Of a DNA stretch of 64,000 nucleotides, positions 37,662-52,426 are shown one piece after another. The notes beneath the pieces were generated by a model that saw only the letters and a list, made by a program, of their open reading frames with translations, was not told the origin of the DNA and did no database searches. Source of the DNA: a virus. Within the stretch, counting starts at the first letter, position 1. Each line of letters begins with the position of its first letter. The DNA is taken from the IMG/VR virus record IMGVR_UViG_3300024306_000013, one strand, 5' to 3'. The position numbers and the translations under genes are program-made.

Positions 37662-37717
37662 GTTGCGCTCCTAAGTTGTTTACAGTGTGTGTATTGTACT
37701 GTCAGGACAGGCTGGCG

Positions 37718-37864
37718 TCAACCACGTAGACCGCGTAGATAGCTCTCACGCAGGAGCCGACGCTTTTCTTTGTAGCGTAGCTGTCTGGCCAAAAAGCCAG
37801 CAGATTCAAACCAACCTTGTAGGCAATGACGGGTTTGTCGGATACGCCTCTCTCGCATCTTCAT
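37718..37864 (-). CDS. 48-aa Arg-rich early peptide
   Basis: MKMRERRIRQTRHCLQGWFESAGFLARQLRYKEKRRLLRESYLRGLRG*; own promoter and AAAGGAGCGAAC RBS. Confidence 0.5.
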   Translation of the reverse strand: MKMRERRIRQTRHCLQGWFESAGFLARQLRYKEKRRLLRESYLRGLRG

Positions 37865-37898
37865 GTTCGCTCCTTTGTTTCATGTTCCAATTATAGCC

Positions 37899-38225
37899 TC
37901 AAGCCGCGGCCCTGTCAACCAATTCTGCGTAGTCCATGCTGGGTTCAGCGTGGCGGATCATGCCCTCGTAATCCAGCTGCGACTTCTCAAACCAGCTGAG
38001 GTAGTCATCACCTTCGATAGACCAATCGATGATGTTCTCGCGGAAGTAGTCGTCATCGCGCTCCACGCCTGCTGCTGCGACTATCTCGTCATAGTCTGCG
38101 TTCAGAGGCACACCCAGGATCTTGTATTCTGATCCACCTTTGGCCTTCCAGTGGAATTCACCTGTGAATCCCGTGTGAGCTGCGTAGTTCTCATAGACCT
38201 GTGTACGGATTACCAGCATAGCCAT
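37899..38225 (-). CDS. Early hypothetical protein
   Basis: TQVYENYAAH...WKAKGGSEY; promoter plus AGGAGCG RBS. Confidence 0.7.
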   Translation of the reverse strand: MAMLVIRTQVYENYAAHTGFTGEFHWKAKGGSEYKILGVPLNADYDEIVAAAGVERDDDYFRENIIDWSIEGDDYLSWFEKSQLDYEGMIRHAEPSMDYAELVDRAAA

Positions 38226-38296
38226 TTCACGCTCCTTGTTCTAACTATGACTCTAGTATACTAAATTTGGATTGGGCTGTCAACCAAAAAGATCAG

Positions 38297-38334
38297 AAAA
38301 AAAAGCACTGTGGCATTGCTGCAACAGTGCTTTT
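38297..38334 (-). terminator. Intrinsic terminator containing the TGTKG-N8-CMACA palindrome
   Basis: Minus strand AAAAGCACTGT-tgcagcaatgcc-ACAGTGC-U8. Confidence 0.8.
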
Positions 38335-38340
38335 CAAGTT

Positions 38341-38370
38341 GGCTAATCCGGGAGCGAATCGGGTTAAGCC
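38341..38370 (-). ncRNA. Candidate 3'-UTR hairpin A with the anti-RBS loop AUUCGCUCC
   Basis: GGCUUAACCCG-AUUCGCUCC-CGGAUUAGCC, lying between a stop codon and a terminator. Confidence 0.55.
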
Positions 38371-38678
38371 AGTTCTGCTACCTTCTCGGGGGCAGCTTTC
38401 ACAGCTTTCGGGGCCTTGGCCACTGGAGCTGGATTCTTCTTCGCGATGTACTCGATCGCGGCCTGTACAGCGGCATTGCCACTGCCGAAACCCACACTCT
38501 TCATGTGAGCTGCGATCTCACCTTTGGTCATCGGATGAGGAAGCTCGACGAGGTCCACATCGCTGTGTCCATTCTTGTCCAGGATCTTGATACGCATGAC
38601 GTCGTTCGCGAAACGAACCTTGGTCTTGCCATTAAGGGTGCTAACACCCGCTACAGAGAACTTCTTGTCAGTTGCCAT
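38364..38678 (-). CDS. Hypothetical protein with an Ala/Lys-rich tail (host gene of hairpin A)
   Basis: FSVAGVS...KVRFAND...KNGH.DV.LVELP..MTK; AAGGCAA leader. Confidence 0.75.
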   Translation of the reverse strand: MATDKKFSVAGVSTLNGKTKVRFANDVMRIKILDKNGHSDVDLVELPHPMTKGEIAAHMKSVGFGSGNAAVQAAIEYIAKKNPAPVAKAPKAVKAAPEKVAELA

Positions 38679-38745
38679 TTTAGTTGCCTTTCATTGCCTA
38701 AGTTGTGTATGTAGGGACCATCCCCATCATACTGTTAGTGTATGA

Positions 38746-38952
38746 TCATTTGGTTTGGCTGTCAACCATTTGATCTGCCAATCTGTCGATCCTACAGGAG
38801 ACCGACTGAGTTTCGCCAAGAGCTTGTATGAATTCATCGTCATAGACCAAGTCCTTGACTGTAAGCTCGAACAGCTCGTCGACCTTTTGGGGGTCTTCCT
38901 TGCCGTCCGAACCCAATTCCATCACTACCACCCACGCGATCTTACGACTCAT
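38746..38952 (-). CDS. Hypothetical protein (68 aa)
   Basis: Start re-assigned to MSRKIAW, overlapping the end of the upstream gene. Confidence 0.55.
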   Translation of the reverse strand: MSRKIAWVVVMELGSDGKEDPQKVDELFELTVKDLVYDDEFIQALGETQSVSCRIDRLADQMVDSQTK

Positions 38953-39553
38953 CCTTCTGCCTCTCTTCGGCACCCTCGCGGATCCATTGCGTGAGCTCTT
39001 CTTCGTTTTCGCGCTCGTATTCTTCCATCTGTTCGGAGATACCAAACGCATCGTCCAAATCACTGGGCAGTTCATCACGCACCTGCTGGCTACGCATTTC
39101 GCCCAGCTCATAGTAGTCGTCATCGCCATCTTCGAACACACCAGCGTAGGCCATGCCTGGTTCATAATACATGGCTCGCACGGAGTAGCCCTGCTCGACC
39201 AACTCCTGATAAACTCCGATGGGCGGCGACCATGCTGAATCAAAATAAGCAGTCAGCGTGTTGCCATCTACCTGGGGATCTTCACATTCCACATCCCATT
39301 TGGTGCCCCAGCGGCTGGTCTGGAAACTATACCAGTCTGTGTGTCCATACTTCTCAAGGTTGGCCTTCTGCTGTGCTTCGTGAGCCTCACGCTGATCCTC
39401 GCCCATGAAGCCTGACACTGTGTCAGTGAGCTCTTTAGGAGTAGGAATCACATGTTGGCAGAACTCGCCTGCTTTAAGGGCCTGGGCCAGTGCTTGGATC
39501 TTAGCAGGATCCTCATGGCTGATTTCCACTGTGTTGTTGCACCAATTTGGCAT
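38942..39553 (-). CDS. YubB/Api92-like ferredoxin-fold protein (DUF1281-like)
   Basis: MPNWCNN, WY..Q..RWGTKWD, FDSAWSPP. Confidence 0.75.
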   Translation of the reverse strand: MPNWCNNTVEISHEDPAKIQALAQALKAGEFCQHVIPTPKELTDTVSGFMGEDQREAHEAQQKANLEKYGHTDWYSFQTSRWGTKWDVECEDPQVDGNTLTAYFDSAWSPPIGVYQELVEQGYSVRAMYYEPGMAYAGVFEDGDDDYYELGEMRSQQVRDELPSDLDDAFGISEQMEEYERENEEELTQWIREGAEERQKDES

Positions 39554-39584
39554 AGAACGCTCCTTCAGTTAATGATAGTGTATT

Positions 39585-39800
39585 TTACTTGCTCTGTTTC
39601 AATTTGTCAACCAAATACTGATTGGCCAAGTTCTGATCCACCCGATCCACAAACTTCTGCTCGATCTCACGTGATGCTCGATCAGCGATCTGGCTCAGGG
39701 TCCTCAGTATCTTGGCCGCGCCCATGGCTGTAGTCTCTGGATCGTCCAGTGCGTCCAGAGCGCGACGCATGTAGTCTAGTTCTTCTCGTTTAACGGCCAT
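39585..39800 (-). CDS. Hypothetical protein (71 aa)
   Basis: Start re-assigned to MAVKREEL. Confidence 0.5.
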   Translation of the reverse strand: MAVKREELDYMRRALDALDDPETTAMGAAKILRTLSQIADRASREIEQKFVDRVDQNLANQYLVDKLKQSK

Positions 39801-39978
39801 AATAGTCTGCGTTACGCAGTCCCAATGTGCCACACCACATGATCGCGCAGCCAACCGCGCTGACCAACACACCGTAAAGCAGTCCCATGTCGTCCATGCT
39901 CTGCTCCACACCGCCCACGCCAAATGCTGTCAACAGCAGTCCGACCATGAACACAAACATTGATGCTTTCTCTGACAT
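39790..39978 (-). CDS. Small two-TM membrane protein
   Basis: Two hydrophobic segments around GVGG.E; promoter plus AGGAGCG RBS. Confidence 0.65.
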   Translation of the reverse strand: MSEKASMFVFMVGLLLTAFGVGGVEQSMDDMGLLYGVLVSAVGCAIMWCGTLGLRNADYYGR

Positions 39979-40073
39979 ATCGCGCTCCTTTTGTTTAACT
40001 ATGCCCATATTATAGCAATTTGGGCCCAGGCTGTCAACCAATTTTTTCAACTTTTTTTCTTCAATGATTTCAA

Positions 40074-40334
40074 TTAGTTATGTCGGATGTACACAGCAAA
40101 ACGATTAGCATCCTGCTTCCAAGTACGGCTTTGATCCCTGAAACGCCCACGTGGACCTCTGTAGATCGTCTCAGTGCGCAGCTTGAGACGCTTCATGAGA
40201 GCTCGCACACGATCCAGGTGCTCCATGGGAATATCATGGAAAAGGCTAGCCCTGCCCTGGCCCGAAGCATACTGATTCAGGAAGTCCTGATCCTGTTGGC
40301 TGAGGCAGAAGAACAGGAATTTGTCCACGATCAT
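40074..40334 (-). CDS. Hypothetical protein
   Basis: Start re-assigned to MIVDKF (ATGA overlap). Confidence 0.5.
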   Translation of the reverse strand: MIVDKFLFFCLSQQDQDFLNQYASGQGRASLFHDIPMEHLDRVRALMKRLKLRTETIYRGPRGRFRDQSRTWKQDANRFAVYIRHN

Positions 40335-40585
40335 CCCCAATCTTTGAAGCAGCCAGCGGCAGTGTTGTCGTTGTAGCCCTGGTTGTATTCGGTCACTGAC
40401 GCACAATCAGAGACTTCAACACGGGGACCTGAATCACCGCCAACTCCACCGTAGTGAGGATTACGGCGACGGCCATAGTATGAGTCTGCGGATCCACGAT
40501 CATACAAGCTGCCGTGTTGCTTGCGATCGAACTGCCAACCCTTGAGGATCCCTACCACACGCTCTCTTTCACCTTGTTCGTACAT
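40331..40585 (-). CDS. Early hypothetical protein
   Basis: HGSLYDRG.ADSYYGR..NPHY; RBS AAAGGAGCGAAU. Confidence 0.7.
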   Translation of the reverse strand: MYEQGERERVVGILKGWQFDRKQHGSLYDRGSADSYYGRRRNPHYGGVGGDSGPRVEVSDCASVTEYNQGYNDNTAAGCFKDWG

Positions 40586-40644
40586 ATTCGCTCCTTTAAG
40601 TTATGTCAGTAGTATAACAGCAGTTGCGCCTGCTGTCAACCAAT

Positions 40645-40839
40645 TTAATCCATGTTGACCTTAGGGTCTTTCTTTAGGCCCTTGTGATGCGCATCGCTCA
40701 CGCACACAGCCTTGGCGGTCAGGCGATCCGCGGCCACTTCCCGGGCTGCAGCAGCGCAGCTTTTCTCGGTGGGGAAGGGCACTACGACCTTGTCTACATA
40801 GGTAGGTCCCTGATACAGCGCGATGATCAGCCAAAACAT
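40645..40839 (-). CDS. Hypothetical protein
   Basis: 64 aa with a F.TEKSC..A..VC Cys pair. Confidence 0.6.
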   Translation of the reverse strand: MFWLIIALYQGPTYVDKVVVPFPTEKSCAAAAREVAADRLTAKAVCVSDAHHKGLKKDPKVNMD

Positions 40840-40973
40840 CAGCGGATCTCCACAGCAGCAATCTCACGGGGATCCAAGCGGAACTGTTCCCAGACCAAGC
40901 AAGCAGCACGGAAATCACGTGCGACCACATCGTAAGCTACACCCGAATCCATTACAAAGCGATAGCGTTTCAT
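40839..40973 (-). CDS. 44-aa early peptide
   Basis: MKRYRFVMDSGVAYDVVARDFRAAC...; promoter at 41000-41028. Confidence 0.55.
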   Translation of the reverse strand: MKRYRFVMDSGVAYDVVARDFRAACLVWEQFRLDPREIAAVEIR

Positions 40974-41050
40974 TTCATTTGCTCCTTTGTTGTATCCCTA
41001 ATATAGCAGCAGCAGCAGTTGCGGTCAACCAAAAAAACAGGCACCCTGAA

Positions 41051-41086
41051 AGAAAAAAGGGACTGTGGCATTTCTGCAACAGTCCC
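41051..41086 (-). terminator. Intrinsic terminator containing the palindrome
   Basis: Minus strand GGGACTGT-tgcagaaatgcc-ACAGTCCC-UUUUUU. Confidence 0.8.
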
Positions 41087-41101
41087 AAGTACCACCCACT
41101 A

Positions 41102-41371
41102 TCAAGCGCCGCTATAGTCGTAATCGTCGTAGTCCGGCTCATAGGGTTCATCGTCGTCTTCAACGATTGAGAGGCCCAAGCTGATGATCACGTCTTCTAC
41201 TTCAGTGATCGACACACCCAACTGATCTGAAATCATCTGGATAGCCTCGCGATCTGTCCCGTAAAGGCTGACAAGATCCATAACCTCGTCCTCAAGCATG
41301 GGACCATCCTCGTCAACCATGACTCCATCATCATCATACATCGGATCTTCGAAAGTCTTCATATAGCTCAT
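41102..41371 (-). CDS. Highly acidic small protein
   Basis: 89 aa, about one third D/E. Confidence 0.6.
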   Translation of the reverse strand: MSYMKTFEDPMYDDDGVMVDEDGPMLEDEVMDLVSLYGTDREAIQMISDQLGVSITEVEDVIISLGLSIVEDDDEPYEPDYDDYDYSGA

Positions 41372-41529
41372 TGACCTGCCTCCTTGACAGTTTTGGATGC
41401 CTCTTTGGCCACTTCGGTAACCAAAGCCTTACCCTGGGTTGAAATGAAATTAACCGTGCCTGTGACCAAGTTGATAACAAACATTGGTGCCAGGATGATT
41501 AGCGCGATGATTACAATCCATTTTGCCAT
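41368..41529 (-). CDS. 53-aa membrane-anchored peptide
   Basis: MAKWIVIIALIILAPMFVINLV...; promoter plus AAGGAGC RBS. Confidence 0.6.
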   Translation of the reverse strand: MAKWIVIIALIILAPMFVINLVTGTVNFISTQGKALVTEVAKEASKTVKEAGQ

Positions 41530-41580
41530 AGTTGCTCCTTTACGAAAGTAAGTGTATTATACAAGAACTTTGGGTTCCTG

Positions 41581-41799
41581 TCAACCAAAGAATAATCCCA
41601 CAACATAGATCACGAGCAGCCCGCCATTGATCGCCACTAGATTCCATTCACGGATTCTCAGCGACCAAATCAAGTACAGCAGCGCACCTGAGTTGAGAAG
41701 ATAGATGTTAAGGGGATCGATGCGCAGTGAAGTACACAGCGCACCAGCGAGAGTGATAGCACAAGCTATCCATTTGAGGTAAAAGTTCGTATCCTTCAT
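41581..41799 (-). CDS. Small three-TM membrane protein
   Basis: Three hydrophobic segments; own promoter. Confidence 0.65.
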   Translation of the reverse strand: MKDTNFYLKWIACAITLAGALCTSLRIDPLNIYLLNSGALLYLIWSLRIREWNLVAINGGLLVIYVVGLFFG

Positions 41800-41831
41800 A
41801 GTCCGTATTCTAGACTATTTTGGACAGCTTG

Positions 41832-42248
41832 TCAACCGTTTTTTGGAGAAGAAAGAGAGATGTTGTTTTTCTGCAACAGTTCACGTAGCACAGCAGCTTG
41901 ATCCCCACTGACCGTGTACTTGGCAGCTTTGAACCGTGAACGCAGCTTGTCTACCAGCTCGTGGAAGTCGGCACCCTGCGCCATGAACTGGCCGTCTTCA
42001 TCGTCGTAGAGGAAATAGATCCCATCGTGCTGCTCGATGCGCAGCTGATAGACGGGGAGATCGTCCTCGTCGTCCTCTTCTTCGTTCCTGAGGAAGTCCA
42101 GGGCTTTCTCACGCAGCTCTTTGCGTTTAGTGTCTGTGTCCACGCCCAGTTCTTCTAGTGCGTCGCGCAAGTTGGCTTTGAATACGATCTTGCTGACTAC
42201 CCATCCTGCGTAAGCACCTGCCAGCCATGCTATGATTAATTCAATCAT
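41832..42248 (-). CDS. Membrane-anchored hypothetical protein
   Basis: N-terminal TM segment; IEQH.G.YFLY...FMAQG. Confidence 0.65.
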   Translation of the reverse strand: MIELIIAWLAGAYAGWVVSKIVFKANLRDALEELGVDTDTKRKELREKALDFLRNEEEDDEDDLPVYQLRIEQHDGIYFLYDDEDGQFMAQGADFHELVDKLRSRFKAAKYTVSGDQAAVLRELLQKNNISLSSPKNG

Positions 42249-42256
42249 CTTCGCTC

Positions 42257-42493
42257 CTATCTTTTGAGTTTGGGTTTTGCTCGTTCTTTAAATTCTCTGT
42301 CCACGTAGTATTGTACTAGGGCATTCTTGATCATGACAGTAAGGTCTAGGCCCTGATCGTCGGGCACTATAAATCGGACTGGACAAGTTCCCCACCCACC
42401 GTACTCTAGGAATTCGTTATAATACCGCCTATGCTGCTTGTTGGAGGGATCAAATGCTACCAATGGTCTACAATAGTATTCTAGCTTGCTCAT
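42257..42493 (-). CDS. Hypothetical protein
   Basis: RP.VAFDP.NK.HR..Y..FL....WG.CP.RF. Confidence 0.65.
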   Translation of the reverse strand: MSKLEYYCRPLVAFDPSNKQHRRYYNEFLEYGGWGTCPVRFIVPDDQGLDLTVMIKNALVQYYVDREFKERAKPKLKR

Positions 42494-42600
42494 ATGGTTT
42501 TATTTACGTGATCAGGGTCATCGTCCTTTCGTATTGTGTTTATTTTAACTGTTTTTATCGTTCTTGTCAACATACACGCACACGTAAGCAGCGGGGCCAC

Positions 42601-43218
42601 TTACTTATGGCCAATGATCATGTGCCGGGTAAAAGAGTTGTTTGGGTAGTTAAAAGTGATAGAGCCCGAATAGAGGCACTCTGCGAGAGGATACAGATCT
42701 TTAAGATCTTCCTGGGAAGTGATCCGATTGATATGATCAGGGATAGCCAGATCGCTGCCCTGTATGGCCACTATGGTGCCTTTGGGTATGTCGTCAAACC
42801 ATTTGGTCTCGGCTACATGTTCAGCAGAAGTCATGATGATCACATGCGGGTTGTCTACAGAGTAATCTATGTAGTTAATGTCGCCCGTCTGTGCTTTGAA
42901 CTGCCAATCCTGTATTTCCCAGAACTTATTGATCTTGTCTGCGATAGGTTGGCAAGCAGGATCCCGGTCGATGCTGCGCACATACTTGATCGGGATCACT
43001 GCCCTGGTGCGCATGATCAGATTGGTCACTCCATACCAGCCTGCGAAGATCCAGACCTTGTAACCATCTGCGGGAGCTTGTAGGGGTTGTAGGCACTCTT
43101 CCAATCGCTCGATCAGCCAGGCCTTTGAAGCGACCTGGCTGCTAGCGAAACTGTCGTAATCGAATAGCGGACGGGTCGCTAATAGACCCGCCAGCCAATC
43201 ACGAAGTCTTTTCATCAT
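42601..43218 (-). CDS. Class I SAM-dependent methyltransferase-like protein
   Basis: IFAGWYG, SIDRD, TSAEH. Confidence 0.6.
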   Translation of the reverse strand: MMKRLRDWLAGLLATRPLFDYDSFASSQVASKAWLIERLEECLQPLQAPADGYKVWIFAGWYGVTNLIMRTRAVIPIKYVRSIDRDPACQPIADKINKFWEIQDWQFKAQTGDINYIDYSVDNPHVIIMTSAEHVAETKWFDDIPKGTIVAIQGSDLAIPDHINRITSQEDLKDLYPLAECLYSGSITFNYPNNSFTRHMIIGHK

Positions 43219-44410
43219 AGATCACAGTCTGACCAAAGGGTGCTTCGTTGCTAGAGCCCTTGACGATGAACAGGGTATCGCAGTAGTCCTCGTCACCCCA
43301 GCCACCGCATGGATAGCCGTCTGTAAACATGATAAACTTCTTGGGCACAAGATCGATACCCTTCATGTATTCCCAGTTGGCTTCGAAGTCTGTGCCACCA
43401 CCACCCATGGGCTCGTAGCTCAGTAATGCGTCACCGTCGTCATGTGTGTAGCGTTGGTGATTGTAGATAGCAGTATCAAAGCACCAAATGTCGATGGCAT
43501 AGTCCTCATACTGGTCCATGATGCCTTTGACTTCTGACAGGAAGATCCTGGCATCTGCGTCACCGATAGAACCTGACATGTCGATACCAATGGCCACGTC
43601 TACAGTCTGATCGTTCTTCATGCCTGGAAGCACCGCACCACTGTGCTGGCTCTTGCGGTTAGGACGAGTAAAGGAGTAATCGTTGCGGATGATGCTCTGG
43701 ATGTTCATCTGTAGAACTTCACGCCAGTTCATCTTGGGCTCAGTCAAGTCCTTGAGCAGGCGTTGGATTCCTGCGGGCACCTTGCCGGCACCAGCGGCCG
43801 CGGCACTCTGGATCATGGCCTCTTTAAGCTCATCGCGGATCTTCTGTGCTTCTTCCTTGCTCAGACCAGGCACCTTGCCACCTTTGCCGTCTTTATCGCC
43901 ACTGCCAGCACCAGGGCCTTCTTCTTCGTGGATGTGTTCGTCGAGCAGGTCGCCCAATTGCTTCATAAGATCATTGATATCGATCTTCTCAGCCTTTTCC
44001 CACAATTGATCGTAGATCTCTTCCCAAGCCAAACCACGATACTTTGGATCGTAGCAGATCTTAACTTCAGTGATCTTCTCACCGATACGCTCGTCTACGA
44101 GGATTTGGTTGATAGCGAAGTCCTGTGCGATGTTGCTAAGACCACGGTGACGGCTACCAGTGCGACCAAAGTGATCAAACACGCAATGACCGATCTCATG
44201 TGCGAACAGGAACTCCAGCTTCTTCTCAGAGAGCTTGTTGATGAAGTTGCGATCATACATAAAGTCACGGCCGTTAGTTGCCGCAGTCTTACACCAGCCC
44301 TGATCGGTGACGTCTACCAAACGCATACGGGTGGCCATATTGCCAAAGAACGGTTGCTTGAGCAACAGTCCGATTCGGGCAGTTGTTAGTTTCTCTACGA
44401 TTGGATCCAT
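43199..44410 (-). CDS. DUF2201-type metallopeptidase-VWA protein
   Basis: TAATNG, HEIGH, DMSGS (MIDAS), GGGT.F, FTDG. Confidence 0.85.
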   Translation of the reverse strand: MDPIVEKLTTARIGLLLKQPFFGNMATRMRLVDVTDQGWCKTAATNGRDFMYDRNFINKLSEKKLEFLFAHEIGHCVFDHFGRTGSRHRGLSNIAQDFAINQILVDERIGEKITEVKICYDPKYRGLAWEEIYDQLWEKAEKIDINDLMKQLGDLLDEHIHEEEGPGAGSGDKDGKGGKVPGLSKEEAQKIRDELKEAMIQSAAAAGAGKVPAGIQRLLKDLTEPKMNWREVLQMNIQSIIRNDYSFTRPNRKSQHSGAVLPGMKNDQTVDVAIGIDMSGSIGDADARIFLSEVKGIMDQYEDYAIDIWCFDTAIYNHQRYTHDDGDALLSYEPMGGGGTDFEANWEYMKGIDLVPKKFIMFTDGYPCGGWGDEDYCDTLFIVKGSSNEAPFGQTVIYDEKTS

Positions 44411-44529
44411 TGGACGCTCCTTAACTGTATATATGTATTATAGCACAAGCCCTAGACCCTGTCAACCGGATTGAAAAGGGTGGGGGAGCACCCTGGGCAG
44501 GCACTCCCCCTGAGGGCCACAGGGAGGTC

Positions 44530-45615
44530 TCAGTTCTCCATGGCCTTCAAAACATACTTGCCAAAACGCTTGTGGAACTCGTCGAAGTTCGTCATCTTGC
44601 TGGCGTCCAAAGGCAAGTCATAGTTGGTGAGCGCGGTCTTAGCACCCATCACAACCAACTCAGTTGGGAAATTGTCCATCATGTAGCGGAAGAAGTTATC
44701 TGCCATAGCATCCCAACCCTTGACCTTCTTATCCGCACGGTCCTTGAGCTCGTAGCAGAGGCTAACGGTCAAAGAATACATCGCCGACACTTCCTTGATC
44801 TGGAGATCCTTGACCTTGCCGTCTAGAATGTCTTCTGCCTTAGGCAGTTTACCTGCGATCTTTCGGTGAGCCATGAACTTGATGCCCAGACCATCGCCAA
44901 CAGCACCAGCGATCAAGTTCTGGAGTGTGTCGACATCCACATCTGGATCTTTGAGCAGATCGCTCACGAAAGACCAAGAACGAGGAGTTGCGAATGCGTG
45001 TGAGCTAGACTTAGAGTCGAAGTCAAACAGGTCCTGCTTGGCAAAACCCAAGTAACCAACCACGTCTGCGTGGACCTTGTTCATAACAGCCCACTCCTGG
45101 AAGTCATCGAAGTCAGGCTTCATTTCCAAGTGTAGGAAGCGGTTAGCCAGTGGCTTAGGCATACGGTAGGTAACACCACGGTCACCGTCACGGTTACCAG
45201 CGGCAACGATGTCAACGCCATCGGGCAGGACATAGGTACCAACACGGCGGTTCAAGACCAACTGATAGGCCGCAGCCTGGACAGCCGGAGGAGCAGAGTT
45301 AAGCTCGTCTAGGAAGATGATAGCCTTGCTGGCAGGATCGCGTGGCAGTTCAGAGGGAGGGGCCCACTCCATAGTCTTGCTGTCAGAGTTGTAATAAGGG
45401 ATACCCTTGATGTCAGTGGGTTCCCAAAGTGGCAAGCGAACGTCGATCACTTCGCGATCGGCGCTCTCACCAATCTGCTTGACGATGTCGGATTTACCGA
45501 TGCCTGGAGGGCCCCACAAGAAGATAGGACGACGCATCTTGATAGCGTGACGCAGACTGCGGATAGCACCCTTGGGACCTACGGTGCGGATATTTGTTTC
45601 AGTTGCTTTGGACAT
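44530..45615 (-). CDS. MoxR-like AAA+ ATPase
   Basis: GPPGIGKS, FLDELN, AAGN, LANRF, TPRSW. Confidence 0.88.
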   Translation of the reverse strand: MSKATETNIRTVGPKGAIRSLRHAIKMRRPIFLWGPPGIGKSDIVKQIGESADREVIDVRLPLWEPTDIKGIPYYNSDSKTMEWAPPSELPRDPASKAIIFLDELNSAPPAVQAAAYQLVLNRRVGTYVLPDGVDIVAAGNRDGDRGVTYRMPKPLANRFLHLEMKPDFDDFQEWAVMNKVHADVVGYLGFAKQDLFDFDSKSSSHAFATPRSWSFVSDLLKDPDVDVDTLQNLIAGAVGDGLGIKFMAHRKIAGKLPKAEDILDGKVKDLQIKEVSAMYSLTVSLCYELKDRADKKVKGWDAMADNFFRYMMDNFPTELVVMGAKTALTNYDLPLDASKMTNFDEFHKRFGKYVLKAMEN

Positions 45616-45725
45616 TGAGACCTCCTAAAAAAGTTGCCCAGTTGTGTTTAACTATGACTCTATTATAGTGTATCTGCTTTAGGCAGTCAACCACTATTTT
45701 CTTTCTAGATCAATGTGTTGCAGAT

Positions 45726-46355
45726 TTACAACACCTTGACGTAGTTCAGTTGTGCTGTGTTGTCCGGACGAAGTGCCTTGACCTTGGCCTTCACCCGCAG
45801 CTCCCCGGCTAGCTCCTTGGAGAACCAGAAGTCCACGAAGCTTTCGTTGAGCCGTGCCTGGATGCGGTACTTGCCGAAGTTAGGATTGTATCGCGAGCTG
45901 ATCACTGTGATGTCCCCTATCACAGTTTCACCTACAGCAGCAGCGAGAGGCTGGGCGGAATAGATTTCTCGCTTGAGTTCTGTGCGCTCCTGATCACGGA
46001 CAGCCACGGAAGGCAAGCAGCTGATCACGCTGAAGTCATAAAGATCTCGCCCCGTGAACTCTTCCTTAGCAGCTAACTTCATGGCCGTGGCTTGGAAGTC
46101 ATTGAGCTTGCCCGCCAGGGCCAACAGCGTGTAGGATTTAAAGTGATCCCGAGCAGTGCGACCAGCAGCGTAGTCGACTTCAGTGACCTGGGTGAAATCG
46201 TTGTCGCGGAGCCATTGCTTGACCATAGCTTTGTTGGCTCGCTTGTCCAGCACATAGCCGTCATCTGTGTAACGGCCTTTGTCCTCTTTGAGATACTCAC
46301 CGTTGATACGTTGAGCAGCGGCTGCGGCACCCCAAACTTGATCTGCTGTGAACAT
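45726..46355 (-). CDS. Hypothetical protein with a possible C-terminal OB fold
   Basis: 209 aa; promoter plus CAGGAGCGAAC RBS. Confidence 0.65.
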   Translation of the reverse strand: MFTADQVWGAAAAAQRINGEYLKEDKGRYTDDGYVLDKRANKAMVKQWLRDNDFTQVTEVDYAAGRTARDHFKSYTLLALAGKLNDFQATAMKLAAKEEFTGRDLYDFSVISCLPSVAVRDQERTELKREIYSAQPLAAAVGETVIGDITVISSRYNPNFGKYRIQARLNESFVDFWFSKELAGELRVKAKVKALRPDNTAQLNYVKVL

Positions 46356-46460
46356 AGTTCGCTCCTGTGTTCTAACTATGCCTCTATTATACGGTATTTA
46401 ATCAGGGCTGTCAACCAAAAGATCTGTTGTATTTTTGCAACATGGCGGGAGTGCCGGCCA

Positions 46461-46495
46461 AAAGAAAAGGACTGTGGCTTCTGGGCCACAGTCCC
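46461..46495 (-). terminator. Intrinsic terminator containing the palindrome
   Basis: Minus strand GGACTGTGGC-ccagaa-GCCACAGTCC-UUUUCUUU. Confidence 0.8.
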
Positions 46496-46532
46496 CAAAG
46501 AACGCCCCGGGAGCGAATCGGCTTGTTCTTTG
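46496..46532 (-). ncRNA. Candidate 3'-UTR hairpin B with the anti-RBS loop AUUCGCUCC
   Basis: CAAAGAAC-AAG-CCG-AUUCGCUCC-CGG-GGC-GUUCUUUG, lying between a stop codon and a terminator. Confidence 0.55.
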
Positions 46533-46539
46533 AAACCGA

Positions 46540-46815
46540 TTACTCTACGGACATTCCCAGAGCCTTGGCGCGATAGCCAAGTGCCACGATCTCACGTGAC
46601 GGACGGCCCATCTCGTACTCAGTAACCTGGACGCCGTTGCCAGCCTTACGGTTACGAGTGTAAACAGCGAAACCCTTGTAGCGGATGTCGCTAACAGTTG
46701 CTGATGGGTTCTTGATACCAAAACGCTTGGTGATCTGTGCTTCAGAAAGCTTCTCACCGTTGAACAATGCGTTAAACAGCTTGCCTTCTTTAGTTTCGAG
46801 GTTGATACGCTTCAT
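46540..46815 (-). CDS. Winged-helix-like DNA/RNA-binding protein (host gene of hairpin B)
   Basis: LS..QI.KRFGIKNP.ATVS.IR..G..VY...Y.MG.PSR; start re-assigned to MKRINL. Confidence 0.7.
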   Translation of the reverse strand: MKRINLETKEGKLFNALFNGEKLSEAQITKRFGIKNPSATVSDIRYKGFAVYTRNRKAGNGVQVTEYEMGRPSREIVALGYRAKALGMSVE

Positions 46816-46913
46816 ATTTGCCTTTTCCTTTAAGTTAAAGTATAGCTGATTCAAATCAGCATGTTAATAGTATACCTAAAAGTTCACACAAGGTCAACCT
46901 TTAGGTTTACCAA

Positions 46914-47111
46914 TTAGTTCTTTCGTACCGTCACGTTGGCACGGAAGAACGCTCCCAGCACCACCACAGCAAACCAAGTTTCCATGCTGTATGGAATGGC
47001 CAGTGCGGGGAACAGGGTATTCGCTGCCCAGATCGTGAGCAGGGGGCCCACGACCAACAGCAGAATGACTAGGACGACGACGCCCAAAACGATCGATGTA
47101 GACTTATACAT
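46914..47111 (-). CDS. Small membrane protein
   Basis: GPLLTIWA.NTLFP...IPY...TW. Confidence 0.65.
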   Translation of the reverse strand: MYKSTSIVLGVVVLVILLLVVGPLLTIWAANTLFPALAIPYSMETWFAVVVLGAFFRANVTVRKN

Positions 47112-47361
47112 GGAATTCTAACTCCTTAGGTTCTCCGTCTTCTTCTTTAGCTGCTGGAATCACGTAGGGATCCGCAGGAATCAGACGATTGATTGCTCGG
47201 GCAGACTTCACGGCACTGCCCCCGATATAGACTCTGCTGTAGTGTTCCTGACAGTAGGCCTTGCCCGGGATCACGGCACTGCCGCATGTGAACAGGTTCT
47301 CGTGATCCCTGATTGGGTCCTTGTCGGGCCCAATCCATTGACAGGTGTGGAATAGCATCAT
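47104..47361 (-). CDS. GcrA C-terminal-like Cys/His domain protein
   Basis: CQWIG.D...CG.....G.AYC.EH. Confidence 0.6.
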   Translation of the reverse strand: MMLFHTCQWIGPDKDPIRDHENLFTCGSAVIPGKAYCQEHYSRVYIGGSAVKSARAINRLIPADPYVIPAAKEEDGEPKELEFHV

Positions 47362-48428
47362 TGCCCCCTCTTCATTACAGTGACTTCAGCCATGCTCTGC
47401 CAGCTGTCCGGAAAGCTCTTGCGCAGGTCTGCCACTTTGAGCACCGTACGCAAGCTCAGCTCACGCATCTTAGCACGATTGCCAATCACATATTCGATGA
47501 TCTCGTCGCGCTCGTTGCCTTCGAAGTCATAGGTATCCAACATGCCGTCCTGTACGATCTGCTTGATACGAAGCACCTTCTCACGATCTGTGTCCATCTG
47601 GAGATCGATGTAGTGGCAACGGCTTTCAAGAGCAGCCAAGTGATCCTGTAGCTTTTTACTGCGCACGTTCTCGAACTTGATGTTAGTAATGAAGATCGCA
47701 CCTGCTTTAAACTCAAACTTGTCAGGCACTCCTTCGTTACGTAGCACACGGCTGTCAGTGTTCCACGAAATGGTACGCTTCTTGCTGGAATCCAGTGCGG
47801 CCTTGAGGATGTTCAAGCTGAGATCGTCAAGCAGTACAGAGTCGCAGTCATCGAACACGATAACGTTACCTTTCTCTGAATACTTGTAGAGCTTGGCGTA
47901 CAGGCCTACCGCAGACATCGCGCCTTTGACCACTTCGTACTTGGGTCGGCGATTGCCCAGGGTGTTGAACAGATCTTCTTTAGACAGTACTTCTTCTACG
48001 CCAAAGGATTTGCCCACACCCGGAGGACCCGTCACGATCATAGCACGTACAGTACCTTCTTTGACTGCCTGTGTCATGTGCTTGAGCACTTCAAAACGGC
48101 CACGCAGTCGCTCGATGATCTGCTCATCGGTTTCATGTGCGACTACTTCATCGCTGACTTTGATCTGCTCCAAACTTTTGTCTCCTGCGGGTGTAGCTGG
48201 CACACCGCTGACGACTACGTAGCTTTGTGCTGACGAGCAACGGATACGGATTGAACGATCTGGGATACCAGCGTTCTTTGGGTAGACTGAGCCACCTGCT
48301 ACAGTTACATAGCCACCGTTGGCACCCTCACGATATTGTTCCACGAGCTCGAAACGGTTACCCGCCATGGACACTTCTTGCCCACGGATCTTATAGGTAC
48401 CTTCGCGCATCTCGATGATTGCTGGCAT
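47358..48428 (-). CDS. AAA-family P-loop ATPase
   Basis: GPPGVGKS, VFDDCD, LKAALD, IFITN, ALESR. Confidence 0.8.
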   Translation of the reverse strand: MPAIIEMREGTYKIRGQEVSMAGNRFELVEQYREGANGGYVTVAGGSVYPKNAGIPDRSIRIRCSSAQSYVVVSGVPATPAGDKSLEQIKVSDEVVAHETDEQIIERLRGRFEVLKHMTQAVKEGTVRAMIVTGPPGVGKSFGVEEVLSKEDLFNTLGNRRPKYEVVKGAMSAVGLYAKLYKYSEKGNVIVFDDCDSVLLDDLSLNILKAALDSSKKRTISWNTDSRVLRNEGVPDKFEFKAGAIFITNIKFENVRSKKLQDHLAALESRCHYIDLQMDTDREKVLRIKQIVQDGMLDTYDFEGNERDEIIEYVIGNRAKMRELSLRTVLKVADLRKSFPDSWQSMAEVTVMKRGQ

Positions 48429-48512
48429 TGTCGCTCCTAAAGAAAGTTGTTAAACATGTCAGTATTATACTGCCAGTGGGGGCTGTTGTCAACCCCCACG
48501 AGCCCTATAACA

Positions 48513-48866
48513 TCAAATTTGGGCAAACTTGTTGAGTGCTTCCTGCGCACCCGCGTCCAGCATACAGGCATCCATCGCCGCTTGCTTTTCACGTGCGACC
48601 AGCTTGCGATAGTCCTCAAGCTCTGCTTTCTTTGCTTCCATAGCAGGCCACTCCACATCCTGCGGGTTGAGGTAAGGACCCGTGTAGTCTACCTTGTCTG
48701 CTTTAAGGGTGATCTCGCCAGTGCGGATGCCCTCAAAGACCATGCCCCAGGTAGGCTGTTGTGGACGACCGCTGGGTCCAAAAAGTGCCACTGCCAGCGA
48801 ATTGACCTTTTCCTCTGCGATCTCGTTGAGACGGCGGACGAAATACTCACGTGCTTGTTGTTCCAT
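48513..48866 (-). CDS. Early hypothetical protein
   Basis: 117 aa; promoter plus CAGGAGCG RBS. Confidence 0.65.
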   Translation of the reverse strand: MEQQAREYFVRRLNEIAEEKVNSLAVALFGPSGRPQQPTWGMVFEGIRTGEITLKADKVDYTGPYLNPQDVEWPAMEAKKAELEDYRKLVAREKQAAMDACMLDAGAQEALNKFAQI

Positions 48867-48937
48867 GTTGCGCTCCTGTGTGTGTTAAACAAGTCTGTAT
48901 TATACAGGGCTTAGGGTGCCCTGTCAACCCCTTTTGG

Positions 48938-49375
48938 TTAGGCTGCTTGCCTATCTTCGCAGAACTCGTAGAAGCGACCAATGGGCCCATCGAACAGAGC
49001 AGTATTAGTATCGCTTTGGGTGAGCCCAAACATATTAAAGCCACGATCGCGGACCTGTACATGTATCACACGATCACGCTCGTAGACATGATACTCATAG
49101 TCCTGGCCGCAGTCTACGGCACTCACAGGGTGTAGATAGAACTGCCCGGGGCCGTCCTTGAAGTGTGCGACCAACTGTGCTGCGAGGCAGCTCATGCCGT
49201 TGAACACGGGGCGATCGTCACCGCGCAGGCCGTTGACCAGTGTGCCCTGTGTGAGGAAACGTGCTAGCTCAGCACCGTGGCCCTCCGGATAGCCATCGTA
49301 CTGGCGATAAAGGTTGATGATGGCTGCGTCGGTGATGTCGCCATCATAGACGAAAGTGAGACAACGTGTACCCAT
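48938..49375 (-). CDS. Hypothetical protein with a YDGYP motif
   Basis: MGTR...YRQYDGYP.GHG..L..FL. Confidence 0.7.
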   Translation of the reverse strand: MGTRCLTFVYDGDITDAAIINLYRQYDGYPEGHGAELARFLTQGTLVNGLRGDDRPVFNGMSCLAAQLVAHFKDGPGQFYLHPVSAVDCGQDYEYHVYERDRVIHVQVRDRGFNMFGLTQSDTNTALFDGPIGRFYEFCEDRQAA

Positions 49376-49455
49376 AATGCGCTCCTGTGTGTTGTTGACT
49401 GTGCCTGTATTATAGCAGCAGGGGAGCCGTTTGTCAACCCCCCTGCTGCTGCTAG

Positions 49456-49758
49456 TTATTCCATGCTAGCAAGCTCGTCCTCTTGCATGCCCTGCTCTGT
49501 AAACGTCACAGCGTAGCCCAGTGCCTCGCTAATAGCGTCCTCAAAGCCCGTGTCTGTGTAAATGTCCCATGTCGTGTCGTGTGTAACATAAATGCTCTTA
49601 TAGTCATCTTCTTCTGTTACACTAATCGCAGTCACACGCACTTGTCTGCCTGCTTCACAGCCCCACAAGCCGTCACCAGCTGTAGTAACTATAAAGTCGC
49701 AGTCGTATTCACGTGTTAACATGCCGTCTTCGTTGTGCTCTGCTGTCAATGTTAGCAT
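49456..49758 (-). CDS. Acidic early protein
   Basis: Start at MLTLTAEH after AAGGAGCGA. Confidence 0.65.
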   Translation of the reverse strand: MLTLTAEHNEDGMLTREYDCDFIVTTAGDGLWGCEAGRQVRVTAISVTEEDDYKSIYVTHDTTWDIYTDTGFEDAISEALGYAVTFTEQGMQEDELASME

Positions 49759-49819
49759 ATGTCGCTCCTTGTTAAACATGTCTGTATTATACTGTCGCTA
49801 GCCCAATCTGTCAACTGCT

Positions 49820-50074
49820 TTATGCTGTGCTGTACTTAGGAAATTCAAATCCGCCATGCGCCCCGTACCACTTGCCGTTGCTGCGCATGTAGTAGCCCTG
49901 CGCATACCACCTCGCACACTGTCCGCTAATGCTGCGGTGGTGGCTGGCATGCTGCCCCGCCTTGCTCATCAGTTTCGCTTCTGCCAGTGTCAGCACGTCA
50001 TGTGCCGCCGCGTCCGCTCTCGCCGCAGCGTTGCGCAGCTCTGTGGCTTTAATTAATTGCTGTGCTCTGTCCAT
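49820..50074 (-). CDS. Early hypothetical protein
   Basis: Start at MDRAQQ after AAGGAGCG. Confidence 0.55.
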   Translation of the reverse strand: MDRAQQLIKATELRNAAARADAAAHDVLTLAEAKLMSKAGQHASHHRSISGQCARWYAQGYYMRSNGKWYGAHGGFEFPKYSTA

Positions 50075-50125
50075 CGTCCGCTCCTTGTTAAACATGCGGC
50101 TATTATACAGCCTCTGCGGGCAGTG

Positions 50126-50455
50126 TCAACCAAAATCGCCTCGCACATCTGTGTTTAAATTTGGGCGCACCTCACGGCGTATACGTACTTCTTCTCTGTG
50201 TGCCTCAGCCTTGCCGCGTATCACAGCATGTACTATGATGGTGATGTCTTCTTTGTTCGCGACAGTCCGCAGTGCGCGACACAGGGCCCAATCTTTGTTC
50301 TCGCTGTGAGCACGATAGAAGTGCTTGGCAGCACGAGCGCGGACGCTTTTGTTAACAGTGCTCTCTGTCTTAGCTGTCACGCCGATGTAGTTGCCCTGGG
50401 GTACACGCAGCTCGTAGATGATGTGGTTTCTGTCTGTTCGTTTAGCTCGTGCCAT
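50126..50455 (-). CDS. GIY-YIG-like nuclease-domain protein
   Basis: IIYEL...NYIGVT...R...H. Confidence 0.65.
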   Translation of the reverse strand: MARAKRTDRNHIIYELRVPQGNYIGVTAKTESTVNKSVRARAAKHFYRAHSENKDWALCRALRTVANKEDITIIVHAVIRGKAEAHREEVRIRREVRPNLNTDVRGDFG

Positions 50456-50831
50456 CGTTCGCTCCTTCATTGTCAGTATTGTACAGCCATCCGCCCAAAC
50501 TGTCAACCAAAAACAGCAGATTTTTTCGATTATTTTTTCTGTGGCATTCTGAACACAGTGTGGCATTTCTGCCACAGCCCGCCGAGCGCCCCTTAGCTGC
50601 CCAGCACAGACCCCTGACCACAGGTATGCGCAGCACGTGAAGCCGTCGGGATCATCATTCAGCTGCTGTTCATGTGCTGCTGCTCGAGTGATCTGACCGT
50701 GCCCCGCCCAGAGTTCTCACACTGCTGCCCGTGACTGACTCGTGATCGCTGCTCTGCTGACTGTAAATTTACTCGGGTATTTGCTCGGGTCGTTGCTGCT
50801 GCTGTGCTGCTGCTGTGTAGTGAGAGAACAG

Positions 50832-50907
50832 TGGTGGGCCCAGTAGGATTCGAACCTACAGTCAACGGATTATGAGTCCGCTGCTTTAACCGTTAAGCTA
50901 TAGGCCC
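50832..50907 (-). tRNA. tRNA with anticodon CAU, likely Ile2 (lysidine type); CCA encoded
   Basis: GGGCCTATAGCTTAACGGTTAAAGCAGCGGACTCATAATCCGTTGACTGTAGGTTCGAATCCTACTGGGCCCACCA; 76-nt cloverleaf with TTCGAA T-loop. Confidence 0.9.
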
Positions 50908-50915
50908 AACACTGT

Positions 50916-51200
50916 TCACTCGAGGCCGCGAATCCTCGCTTCTATCTCTTCCGTGATCGCTTGATCCCTGCGACCCTTCAGGATGAATCTGTGTAGATCT
51001 TCTATGTGTGTCATGAACACTTCCGGCACTGCTGCTGCTGCGCGATCCATATCCCACTGTGAAGGATAGTGCCGCAACACTGCCCGGGCACGATCCCTAA
51101 TGCTGCTGTGTACACGTGGAGTGGCTTTGGGATCACAGAGATCTCGCAACATGCGTTCAGCTGCGATCACAGCACGATAGCGTTCGTCTGGCAGTGTCAT
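50916..51200 (-). CDS. Hypothetical protein
   Basis: MTLPDERYRAV...TPRV...R.RA..VLRHYP. Confidence 0.7.
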   Translation of the reverse strand: MTLPDERYRAVIAAERMLRDLCDPKATPRVHSSIRDRARAVLRHYPSQWDMDRAAAAVPEVFMTHIEDLHRFILKGRRDQAITEEIEARIRGLE

Positions 51201-51201
51201 A

Positions 51202-51417
51202 TTATTCCTTAACCTTAGCAGCGGGGCCTATTGGTCTAGTGTCCCTATACATTTCACAGACCTGACCCTGACAGATCCATGGCGGAATACGATCTAAAAG
51301 TGATTGACCCCGGCGTATATCTGGGTCCCAGGCAGCATCACGATAGTCTCTGTACTGTGTATTAGCACAGCCAGCGAGCGTGATAGCCAGTAGTGTAAGT
51401 GTAGTGATCGCTCTCAT
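51202..51417 (-). CDS. Small lipoprotein
   Basis: Signal peptide with an LAGC lipobox. Confidence 0.6.
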   Translation of the reverse strand: MRAITTLTLLAITLAGCANTQYRDYRDAAWDPDIRRGQSLLDRIPPWICQGQVCEMYRDTRPIGPAAKVKE

Positions 51418-51480
51418 AGTCTGTATAGTATATGCTCAGATACGCAGTGTGTCAACCAGATCTAGCGCAGCGGGGCCAGT

Positions 51481-51680
51481 GAGAGAACCGTGGAAAGAGG
51501 ATCAAGAATGGTCAAAAACGGTGGTGAGAATGGTGTCATATGATTCAAAAACGTGGGAAATGGTGCCGCACAGTCATGGCCAAACGATTCAAACGATGGT
51601 GGTTTTGGAGGTATGCTAAAAATGGTCCCCACCCGTTTTCCACCGTTTTCCACCGTTTTCCACCCTTCTCCCACCGAGTC
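51481..51680. repeat. Degenerate ~10-bp repeat array in inverted arrangement
   Basis: Tandem CACCGTTTTC units at about 51630-51665, mirrored by AAAACGGTGG/GAAATGGTG-like units at about 51505-51625. Confidence 0.7.
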
Positions 51681-51764
51681 TTCTCGGCTCTACACAGTCA
51701 CTGCCAGCGTACACACACTATCCTTCGCAGCGGGGCCTGTGCCCTTAGCTCTTTTAAATACTGT

Positions 51765-51962
51765 ATGCGTATACTATGCTATCGTTCCTGGAGTTCATAT
51801 ACTGTACGTGATCGTGTGATTAATTTGATCCGCCACCCGGGCTGGTTTGAACCCATACATGAGTTGTGTACAGACTATTTTCTACTGGAAGACTCTGTAG
51901 CTATAGTGTTGCTAGCAGATCCAGAATGCTTTCGATACCCTGCCAAGGACTATATCCTATGA
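51765..51962 (+). CDS. Small late hypothetical protein
   Basis: TTAAATA 4 nt upstream of the ATG. Confidence 0.5.
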   Translation: MRILCYRSWSSYTVRDRVINLIRHPGWFEPIHELCTDYFLLEDSVAIVLLADPECFRYPAKDYIL

Positions 51963-52144
51963 TCAGCCAAGATCTACACAGTCTAGTCTGTACGCAGGAA
52001 CATCTAGAACGCATTCAGGCGTACAGAGATAACCACGATGTCCTACGCATAATACACATACTGTGGGATGATCTTTACGATCGTTACATAGTGCTAGTAC
52101 GCTGTTCTCCTGCCACATTAACCATGTTGACACTGTTATGCTAG
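51959..52144 (+). CDS. Small hypothetical protein
   Basis: ATGA overlap; 61 aa. Confidence 0.45.
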   Translation: MISQDLHSLVCTQEHLERIQAYRDNHDVLRIIHILWDDLYDRYIVLVRCSPATLTMLTLLC

Positions 52145-52329
52145 CCACACTCAAAAGCATGGACACGCGAGATCAGGACTTTTTCTTTGCTTGGTGCCAC
52201 AGCCAAAACGTTCCCTGTATGCGTGTCAAGCGTGGAGGGGGCTATCGTGCTGCTGCCATCGTGCCCGTGGACAGTCAGCAGACGGTAATCTTCATGCTGG
52301 TTTGGAGTTCGCGCTGTGAGTTTTCCTGA
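52138..52329 (+). CDS. Small hypothetical protein
   Basis: 63 aa, overlaps the previous gene. Confidence 0.45.
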   Translation: MLATLKSMDTRDQDFFFAWCHSQNVPCMRVKRGGGYRAAAIVPVDSQQTVIFMLVWSSRCEFS

Positions 52330-52426
52330 GGGGAATTTTTGCTGCGCATCGCTTCGCTCCAGGGTAAATTATCGCAAAGTCTTTTGGATTGGGTAAATAC
52401 CCTATATAGAGTTATGGAGGACTCAT

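Follow-up and report, generated by a model that had tools for sequence, protein, structure and literature searches.

Within a 64,000-nucleotide (nt) stretch of DNA from an uncultured river jumbo myovirus (IMG/VR virus record IMGVR_UViG_3300024306_000013; "the window" hereafter means this whole stretch), two hairpins in the 3' untranslated regions (3'UTRs) of early transcripts display the same 8-nt sequence, UUCGCUCC, in their loops. This sequence is complementary to GGAGCGAA, a ribosome-binding site (RBS) found before several early genes, in which the Shine-Dalgarno (SD) core GGAG is followed by a private tag, CGAA. Among related viruses, tag and loop were found to switch together between clades. 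The reading we favor, and consider probable when taken as a whole, is that the hairpins present an anti-RBS RNA that lowers the translation of early genes. New here are the use of a private SD extension to define a class of early viral genes and the fact that this extension co-switches with an anti-tag between clades.

In minus-strand sense, CCG-AUUCGCUCC-CGG (CCGATTCGCTCCCGG) occurs exactly twice in the window; with up to two mismatches allowed, the 15-mer still gave two matches against 0.03 expected, and none of 100 shuffles reached two. Each copy forms a hairpin apex, composed of a 3-bp stem and a 9-nt loop, located after a stop codon and before a strong intrinsic terminator, and a consensus sigma70 promoter lies after each terminator. 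The lower stems are unrelated, being GGCUUAA/UUAGCC in hairpin A. A preliminary description of this DNA had reported an identical apex on two dissimilar stems, and both the coordinates and the folds agree with it. The hairpins and the genes around them, all on the minus strand, are as follows.

38340..38371, minus strand: hairpin A (folded); its lower stem takes in the last codons and the UAA stop of P0001; apex 38348-38362, loop AUUCGCUCC 38351-38359
38292..38335, minus strand: intrinsic terminator A, stem 38300-38335, then a U-run
38364..38678, minus strand: gene P0001, 104 amino acids, with its own promoter, a 5' hairpin and a CA-rich leader; untagged RBS GAAAGGCAA
38737..38765, minus strand: sigma70-type promoter of P0001, TTGACA-17-TACACT
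46496..46532, minus strand: hairpin B (folded); lower stem CAAAGAAC/GUUCUUUG; apex 46507-46521, loop AUUCGCUCC 46510-46518
46458..46495, minus strand: intrinsic terminator B, stem 46468-46495, then a U-tract
46540..46815, minus strand: gene P0002, 91 amino acids, a winged helix-turn-helix (wHTH) protein (PF14090); untagged RBS AAAAGGCAA
46839..46897, minus strand: two overlapping sigma70-like promoters upstream of P0002
47358..48428, minus strand: P-loop ATPase gene (phrog_1250), first gene of the operon ending at hairpin B; tagged RBS GGAGCGACA (48432-48437)

The preliminary description assigned one gene to each hairpin. Hairpin B does follow P0002, but it also ends the operon of the tagged ATPase, with ATPase, P0002, hairpin B, and terminator B in succession and no strong terminator in between. 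No such hairpin accompanies the third strong terminator, near 41058, and the tagged block from 46.4 to 41.06 kb closes at this ordinary terminator. The distance from the loop to the U-run was 32 to 48 nt in the P0001-associated hairpins (type A) and 30 to 38 nt in the P0002-associated ones (type B), so that a terminator with a U-tail lies 3' of a conserved seed, as in Hfq-type 3'UTR small RNAs (sRNAs), which are stable RNAs that are processed or transcribed separately and that bind Hfq.

Between 36 and 52.6 kb the minus strand contains 19 copies of GGAGCG, 16 of which sit 3 to 5 nt before an ATG that opens an open reading frame (ORF). Five of the 16 tagged starts read GGAGCGAA, one of them extended to GGAGCGAAU. 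Across the window, 15 of 24 minus-strand GGAG-type sites read GGAGCG, and none of the plus-strand gene starts carries it. In mRNA sense, CGCUCC was confined to the two loops within 36 to 56 kb, with GGAGCG occurring 18 times in 36 to 52 kb. The tagged sites, which match those listed in the preliminary description, are given below.

40586..40594, minus strand: RBS GGAGCGAAU, directly before the ATG at 40585; complementary to the loop at 9/9 positions
37866..37873, minus strand: RBS GGAGCGAA, before the ATG at 37864
42250..42257, minus strand: RBS GGAGCGAA, before the ATG at 42248 of an operon-internal gene with no promoter directly upstream
46358..46365, minus strand: RBS GGAGCGAA, before the ATG at 46355, the first gene downstream of terminator B
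50458..50465, minus strand: RBS GGAGCGAA, before the ATG at 50455
within 37666..52360, minus strand: eleven more RBSs with GGAGCG 3-5 nt before ATG (hexamer low coordinates 37666, 38230, 39558, 39983, 44415, 48432, 48871, 49380, 49763, 50079, 52355)

The distance from tag to ATG was steady (0 to 2 nt), that from tag to -10 box ranged from 12 to 23 nt, and the tag is also found inside an operon; hence, we take it to be a translation feature and not a promoter feature. Complementarity over 9 nt, as first described, holds at 40585. In relatives, however, the base after GGAGCGAA is U in just 8% of sites, and the usual match is therefore 8 nt. Median energies of the duplex between the apex and the translation initiation region were -12.1 kcal/mol for early genes and -7.5 kcal/mol for plus-strand genes; the two hairpin-bearing genes, P0001 and P0002, gave -3.1 and -7.8 kcal/mol. 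Their leaders lack the target RBS, as first described. Many late and replication messages were also described as leaderless-looking. Upstream of five plus-strand genes (889, 6920, 12101, 17456, and 34882) stands an ATAAATA box that ends exactly 5 nt short of the ATG, which makes leaderless late mRNAs plausible, and an SD-like motif was missing at 17 of 29 plus-strand starts. Late mRNAs may thus be leaderless, judging from their upstream sequences, and hence lie outside any SD-directed control. The partial match noted before one late gene was also recovered, GGAGC preceding the start at 6208.

We scrutinized relatives in IMG/VR using protein-anchored searches and an exact scan for the 15-mer. 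The same apex was found directly 3' of P0001 and P0002 orthologues at 64 to 80% protein identity, and five large related contigs each carried exactly two exact 15-mer copies, 6 to 7.5 kb apart and on one strand. The exact 15-mer occurs in at least 121 distinct IMG/VR contexts, 97 of 121 being the element itself behind three gene families; among the contexts listed, 44 were behind the wHTH gene, 22 behind P0001, and 31 behind a P-loop ATPase. The host gene of this last group (type C) is a 70%-identical homologue of the window gene 47358-48428, and the motif there forms either the apex of the terminator itself or part of tandem arrays of two to three hairpins. The remaining contexts listed were chance matches in coding sequence or the reverse orientation serving as an RBS in other phages. 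In the latter, CCGGGAGCGAAUCGG, the reverse complement of the 15-mer, stands directly before the starts of a CsgF-like secreted protein and endonuclease VII on other phage contigs (L073, L075, L076, L096, L097, L154, L056, L129, and L133). There it is an RBS presented by a mini-hairpin and complementary to the anti-RBS apex over its full length; other lineages seem simply to employ the same RBS in the ordinary way.

The stems of these hairpins vary with compensating changes around a constant loop. Across 22 relatives, six of the seven pairs in the type A lower stem were altered on both sides, with a covariation score of 0.283 compared with 0.181 +/- 0.021 in shuffles (0 of 500 reached it) and 0.05 to 0.16 in slid controls. 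Across 44 relatives, the type B lower stem had three pairs with 9 to 21 double changes. For type C, MAFFT/RNAalifold left the lower stems unregistered owing to their variable lengths, and these stems were seen by eye only. Compensated variants of the apical stem were found (CCG/CGG, ACGG/CCGU, CAG/CUG, CUGCG/CGUAG, and CUCUG/CAGAG), with UUCGCUCC invariant throughout. Sense and antisense folding energies were uninformative for type A because in the antisense apex an additional G-U pair forms within the invariant 15-mer, and lower-stem G-U counts were used in their place. Folds in mRNA sense contained more G-U pairs than the opposite strand in both type B (124 vs. 50) and type C (73 vs. 24). 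Judged by these alignments, both hairpins are RNA structures in early-mRNA sense. An Rfam scan of 36 to 56 kb at E<=1 gave no match at either hairpin.

To compare tag and loop across lineages, covariation was tested on 80 loci anchored on the ATPase gene. Among clade I ATPase orthologues, the RBS read GGAGCGA in 24 of 25, with UUCGCUCC at the 3' end of the transcript. The six clade II orthologues instead carried the RBS (A)GAGGGCA(A), and their 3'UTRs contained one to three copies of (U/G)UGCCCUC (two to three in five of six), of which one lies at the apex of the terminator and another follows the stop codon in unpaired form; 13 of 17 sense GCCCUC sites in this clade fell within 170 nt past the ATPase stop. 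In the four clade III orthologues the RBS was GGAGCUA(A/G), one being GGAGCCUAG, and the loop was (U/C)UAGCUCC. The 11 ATPase orthologues without a private tag had no such 3'UTR motif. GGAGCG made up 100 of 216 GGAG-type sites in loci with the loop vs. 5 of 82 in loci without it, the latter being the level expected by chance. On a tree of the wHTH protein, loop and tag were perfectly concordant, with seven changes each, and all three well-supported independent pairs were concordant. Counts over whole contigs of the tags before ATG, in the order GGAGCGA/GAGGGCA/GGAGCUA, were as follows.

G001, clade I: 8/0/1
G006, clade II: 0/13/1
G007, clade II: 1/2/0
G008, clade III: 2/1/6
G009, clade III: 1/0/6

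Conservation, co-occurrence, and tag/loop covariation in three clades thus strongly support the proposal that the loop is an anti-RBS element directed against the common early RBS. The comparison with relatives suggested in the preliminary description yielded a conserved loop and, at the ATPase, a tag and 3'UTR motif that switch together in all but one lineage (L281, see below). The interpretation in that description is thereby supported in part, its processed sRNAs, their purely trans action, and the shut-off of the whole early class being predictions. P0001 orthologues in clades II and III had no anti-tag hairpin. Two further observations concern the leaders of the hairpin genes. The untagged clade I RBS of P0001 and P0002 (38679-38690 and 46816-46826: AAGGCAA; in relatives, AAAGAGGUAA) is similar to the tag of clade II, (A)AGAGGGCAA, and clade II P0001 itself bears the clade II tag (loci L225-L237, L284, and L285).

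We propose the following mechanism. The hairpins, transcribed in early-mRNA sense, would show UUCGCUCC in an open loop just before the terminator, where it would pair with the SD core and the private tag, which in this phage clade marks the RBS of most early genes. Such pairing would cover the SD and compete with 30S binding, so that less early-gene product would be translated. By a trans route, stable 3' ends of the P0001 and P0002 transcripts would act on tagged mRNAs, either as processed sRNAs or as part of the intact mRNA; by a cis route, the hairpin would fold back on tagged sites of the same co-terminal transcript, for example that of the ATPase operon ending at hairpin B. Cis action is equally possible because hairpin B and the type-C hairpins share a transcript with the tagged ATPase RBS. 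Many tagged genes lie in blocks that do not end in a hairpin (e.g., 46.4 to 41.06 kb), pointing to trans action as well. P0001 and P0002 would escape through their untagged leaders, and late genes would escape by being untagged and partly leaderless-looking. Because P0001 and P0002 are expressed from promoters of early type, only the accumulation or stability of the RNA could provide any timing. Beyond the structure, conservation, complementarity, clade-specific switching, and co-occurrence observed here, we infer that the RNAs are made and stable. That loop and tag pair in the cell is, on the strength of their co-switching, highly likely, and if they do, analogy with characterized systems makes repression the likely outcome. 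The loop also contains UUCG, a YUNR U-turn motif of the kind that speeds antisense pairing (PMC4485353); this support is weak, since the motif is expected by chance in about one-third of such loops.

Known systems provide the basis for this analogy. The cuckoo family of Alphaproteobacteria (RSs0680/CcsR1-4 and ar14) comprises RNAs with two to four hairpins that have variable stems and the same anti-SD loop, CCUCCUCCC (PMC4615179 and PMC8034643). In that family, the RNA is transcribed together with a small protein gene upstream and released from the 3'UTR of that gene by RNase E. The phage element likewise places an anti-SD loop on variable stems, also occupies a 3'UTR position, and in relatives occurs as two to three hairpins in tandem behind the ATPase. 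Unlike cuckoo RNAs, it is encoded by a phage and not on a bacterial chromosome, has one hairpin plus terminator per site in the window, carries the loop AUUCGCUCC (UGCCCUC or UAGCUCC in the sister clades) and not CCUCCUCCC, lacks an Rfam match, and targets a private SD extension on the phage's own early genes that co-switches between clades. It is not a member of the cuckoo family. In Staphylococcus aureus icaR, a C-rich 3'UTR motif pairs with the SD region of the same mRNA and blocks initiation, and the duplex is cut by RNase III (PMC3868564). Similarly, in each of the three clades the tag in the RBS of the ATPase gene is complementary to a motif located at the transcript's 3' end. Unlike icaR, the tag is common to many other phage genes, so that trans action on a gene class is possible, and the monocistronic P0001 and P0002 transcripts, which have their own promoters, bear the loop without the tag. 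The best reading, by comparison with these systems, is that the phage element would work like the cuckoo/CcsR sRNAs or the icaR 3'UTR, in trans or on its own transcript.

The preliminary description likened the element to T4 RegB, which cuts GGAG in early SDs, with late mRNAs spared (PMC3014915). This comparison holds for function and for nothing beyond it. Both RegB/RegA and the phage element are phage-encoded and would exert class-wide, posttranscriptional control at early-mRNA initiation regions; however, RegB and RegA are proteins, whereas the specificity element here is an RNA loop. A search of the five related contigs for RegB (PF10715) returned no match, although the control genomes gave none either, and among the 20 early ORFs of the window no Pfam match to RegB and no RegA homologue were detected. 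Recognition through the loops of hairpins or terminators is known from YUNR U-turn loops (PMC4485353) and from the terminator loops of SdsR, RseX, and ArrS (PMC11979758). As in these regulators, the phage recognition sequence lies in a hairpin loop with a YUNR motif (UUCG), and the type-C loop is the apex of an intrinsic terminator. Unlike the phage element, they address one or few targets, and none has a lineage-private RBS tag.

Several observations weigh against repression by an anti-RBS RNA as set out above. The hairpin genes are driven by early-type promoters. The tag is present on 16 early starts only and not on every early start, and in clade III it is sparse and scattered. The wHTH tree (90 amino acids) is short and weakly resolved, which places the number of independent events between three and seven. 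In one lineage, L281 (IMGVR_UViG_3300027973_000032), loop and tag disagree: two UCGCUCC loops lie behind the ATPase and the sites read GGAGCA(A/C), giving one C.A mismatch. Pairing also leaves two conserved features unexplained, the first A of the loop and a UAA located, in types A and C, two nt from the apex on its 5' side. Of 31 type-C hairpins, 24 have this UAA, separated by 2 nt from the CCG of the apex (e.g., L051, L067, L069, L074, and L077); in type A it is the stop codon of P0001. The conserved A and UAA hint at an additional protein or structural constraint. Three other explanations of the element were rejected. A small ORF ending at the type-C UAA was ruled out, as in 30 of 31 cases no reading frame that has a start codon terminates at this position; T-loop or tRNA mimicry was ruled out by a loop of 9 nt with C where A58 is required; and a pure read-through model aimed at the next gene was ruled out because the RBS of that gene is often untagged in relatives.

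Pairing could be real and have an outcome other than repression, such as protection of the RBS from an SD-directed nuclease, an effect on the stability or 3'-end fate of the hairpin mRNAs, or early mRNAs serving as a sponge. The same co-occurrence and co-switching would support these outcomes, and because hairpin genes and putative targets are transcribed together from early-type promoters, tuning fits better than late shut-off. Covering the SD is, however, repressive in every characterized analogue, including icaR (PMC3868564) and cuckoo/CcsR (PMC4615179), and the nuclease that protection would call for found no RegB-like match in the search described above, with its uninformative controls; we regard these outcomes as unlikely. 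Alternatively, the hairpin may be a site for a phage or host RNA-binding protein, acting for instance in 3'-end stability or termination, with complementarity to the RBS secondary. More is conserved than pairing needs, namely the first A of the loop, the 5' UAA, and a closing stem that is frequently CCG/CGG, and the CcsR hairpin RNAs are bound by a small protein encoded upstream (PMC8034643). A protein site would nonetheless leave unexplained both the co-switching of tag and loop in three clades and the confinement of the loop to tag-using genomes; moreover, the closing stem is replaceable and P0001 has no recognizable RNA-binding fold, all of which renders this explanation improbable.

Fainter still is the prospect that a DNA-binding protein such as the wHTH protein P0002 recognizes GGAGCGAA as double-stranded DNA, reading it in either orientation. 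The site does occur in both orientations and the wHTH gene adjoins one copy, but its position is fixed relative to ATG and not to promoters, it is also operon-internal, the stems around it covary at the RNA level and have G-U pairs specific to one sense, and the clade II motif is also found unpaired directly after a stop codon. The preliminary description offered a further alternative, in which a plus-strand antisense RNA would expose GGAGCGAAU in a loop and, like CsrB, act as a decoy for a protein that binds RBSs. Although plus-strand hairpin A folds slightly better in this window, G-U pairs across relatives favor the minus (mRNA) sense. A plus-strand hairpin would follow a weak terminator, and no plus-strand promoter-like site scoring above 9/12 lies nearby facing the hairpins. 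CsrB/RsmZ decoys have many GGA-loop hairpins, in contrast to two copies per genome here. The decoy is thus not supported and is the least credible of these explanations.

If the pairing is real, a virulent jumbo phage exerts RNA-based, class-wide control of early-gene translation built on a private SD extension, through which it would address one temporal class of its own mRNAs and spare host and late messages. Anti-SD hairpins in 3'UTRs, of which the examples known to date lie on bacterial chromosomes (cuckoo/CcsR and icaR), would then occur in phages too, and the natural orthogonal tag/anti-tag pairs of three clades would provide compensatory controls as well as parts for synthetic translation control. 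With 97 of at least 121 distinct 15-mer contexts, the element is widespread in freshwater viromes. A bolder extension, which we rate as doubtful, is that the tag/loop pairs (GGAGCGA/UUCGCUCC, GAGGGCA/UGCCCUC, and GGAGCUA/UAGCUCC) are orthogonal, lineage-private translation codes, whereby a superinfecting relative with the same tag as a resident phage would have its early genes silenced by the resident's anti-tag RNA, and competition would drive switching.

The terminase and an AAA ATPase of the source phage are about 54% identical to their counterparts in Pseudomonas phage PA5oct, its nearest cultured relative by terminase (54%). The PA5oct genome contained neither the loop 9-mer nor its complement, and megablast found no match to the region among cultured phages. 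P0001 had no match by tblastn, and the best cultured match of P0002 was a 35% pelagiphage hit. Searches with P0001 in Pfam, PHROGs, a protein atlas, Foldseek against PDB, and VIA-align wide (best Z 3.0) were likewise without a match, and its AF2 model (pLDDT 78) had no structural match. The region was present in 24 riverine metatranscriptome runs as assembled contigs crossing the terminators, although such contigs cannot show ends, strand, or level.

GC content rises from about 39% in the structural and replication genes (1-32000) to about 50% in the early-gene block (32000-56000). A tRNA-Met (CAT) gene lies within the early region (50832-50907, minus strand); its G1-C72 pair indicates that it is not of the initiator type. 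A weak, sub-threshold GcrA-like hit at 47104-47361 (minus strand), together with an ALAS gene noted in the preliminary description, hints at an alphaproteobacterial host, the group where cuckoo RNAs occur. At the starts of the P0001 and P0002 mRNAs (38679-38736 and 46816-46866, minus strand), a conserved 5' hairpin, a CA-rich leader, and a weak untagged SD were found, as in their orthologues, the leaders being longer than those of the tagged genes; such features characterize mRNAs that are very stable and well translated. Between hairpin A and its terminator, the linker (38336-38346; A4 alignment columns 50-58) retains CUUGG or CUUGA in most relatives. The three strong early terminators (38300-38335, 41057-41084, and 46468-46495, minus strand) have a common core similar to CUGUUGCAGAAAUGCCACAG. 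Type-B relatives retain UGUUGUAGAAAUACAACA in their terminators. The same palindrome also stands free upstream of the next promoter (46421-46438), possibly as an operator or as a hairpin that binds protein and serves for termination too.

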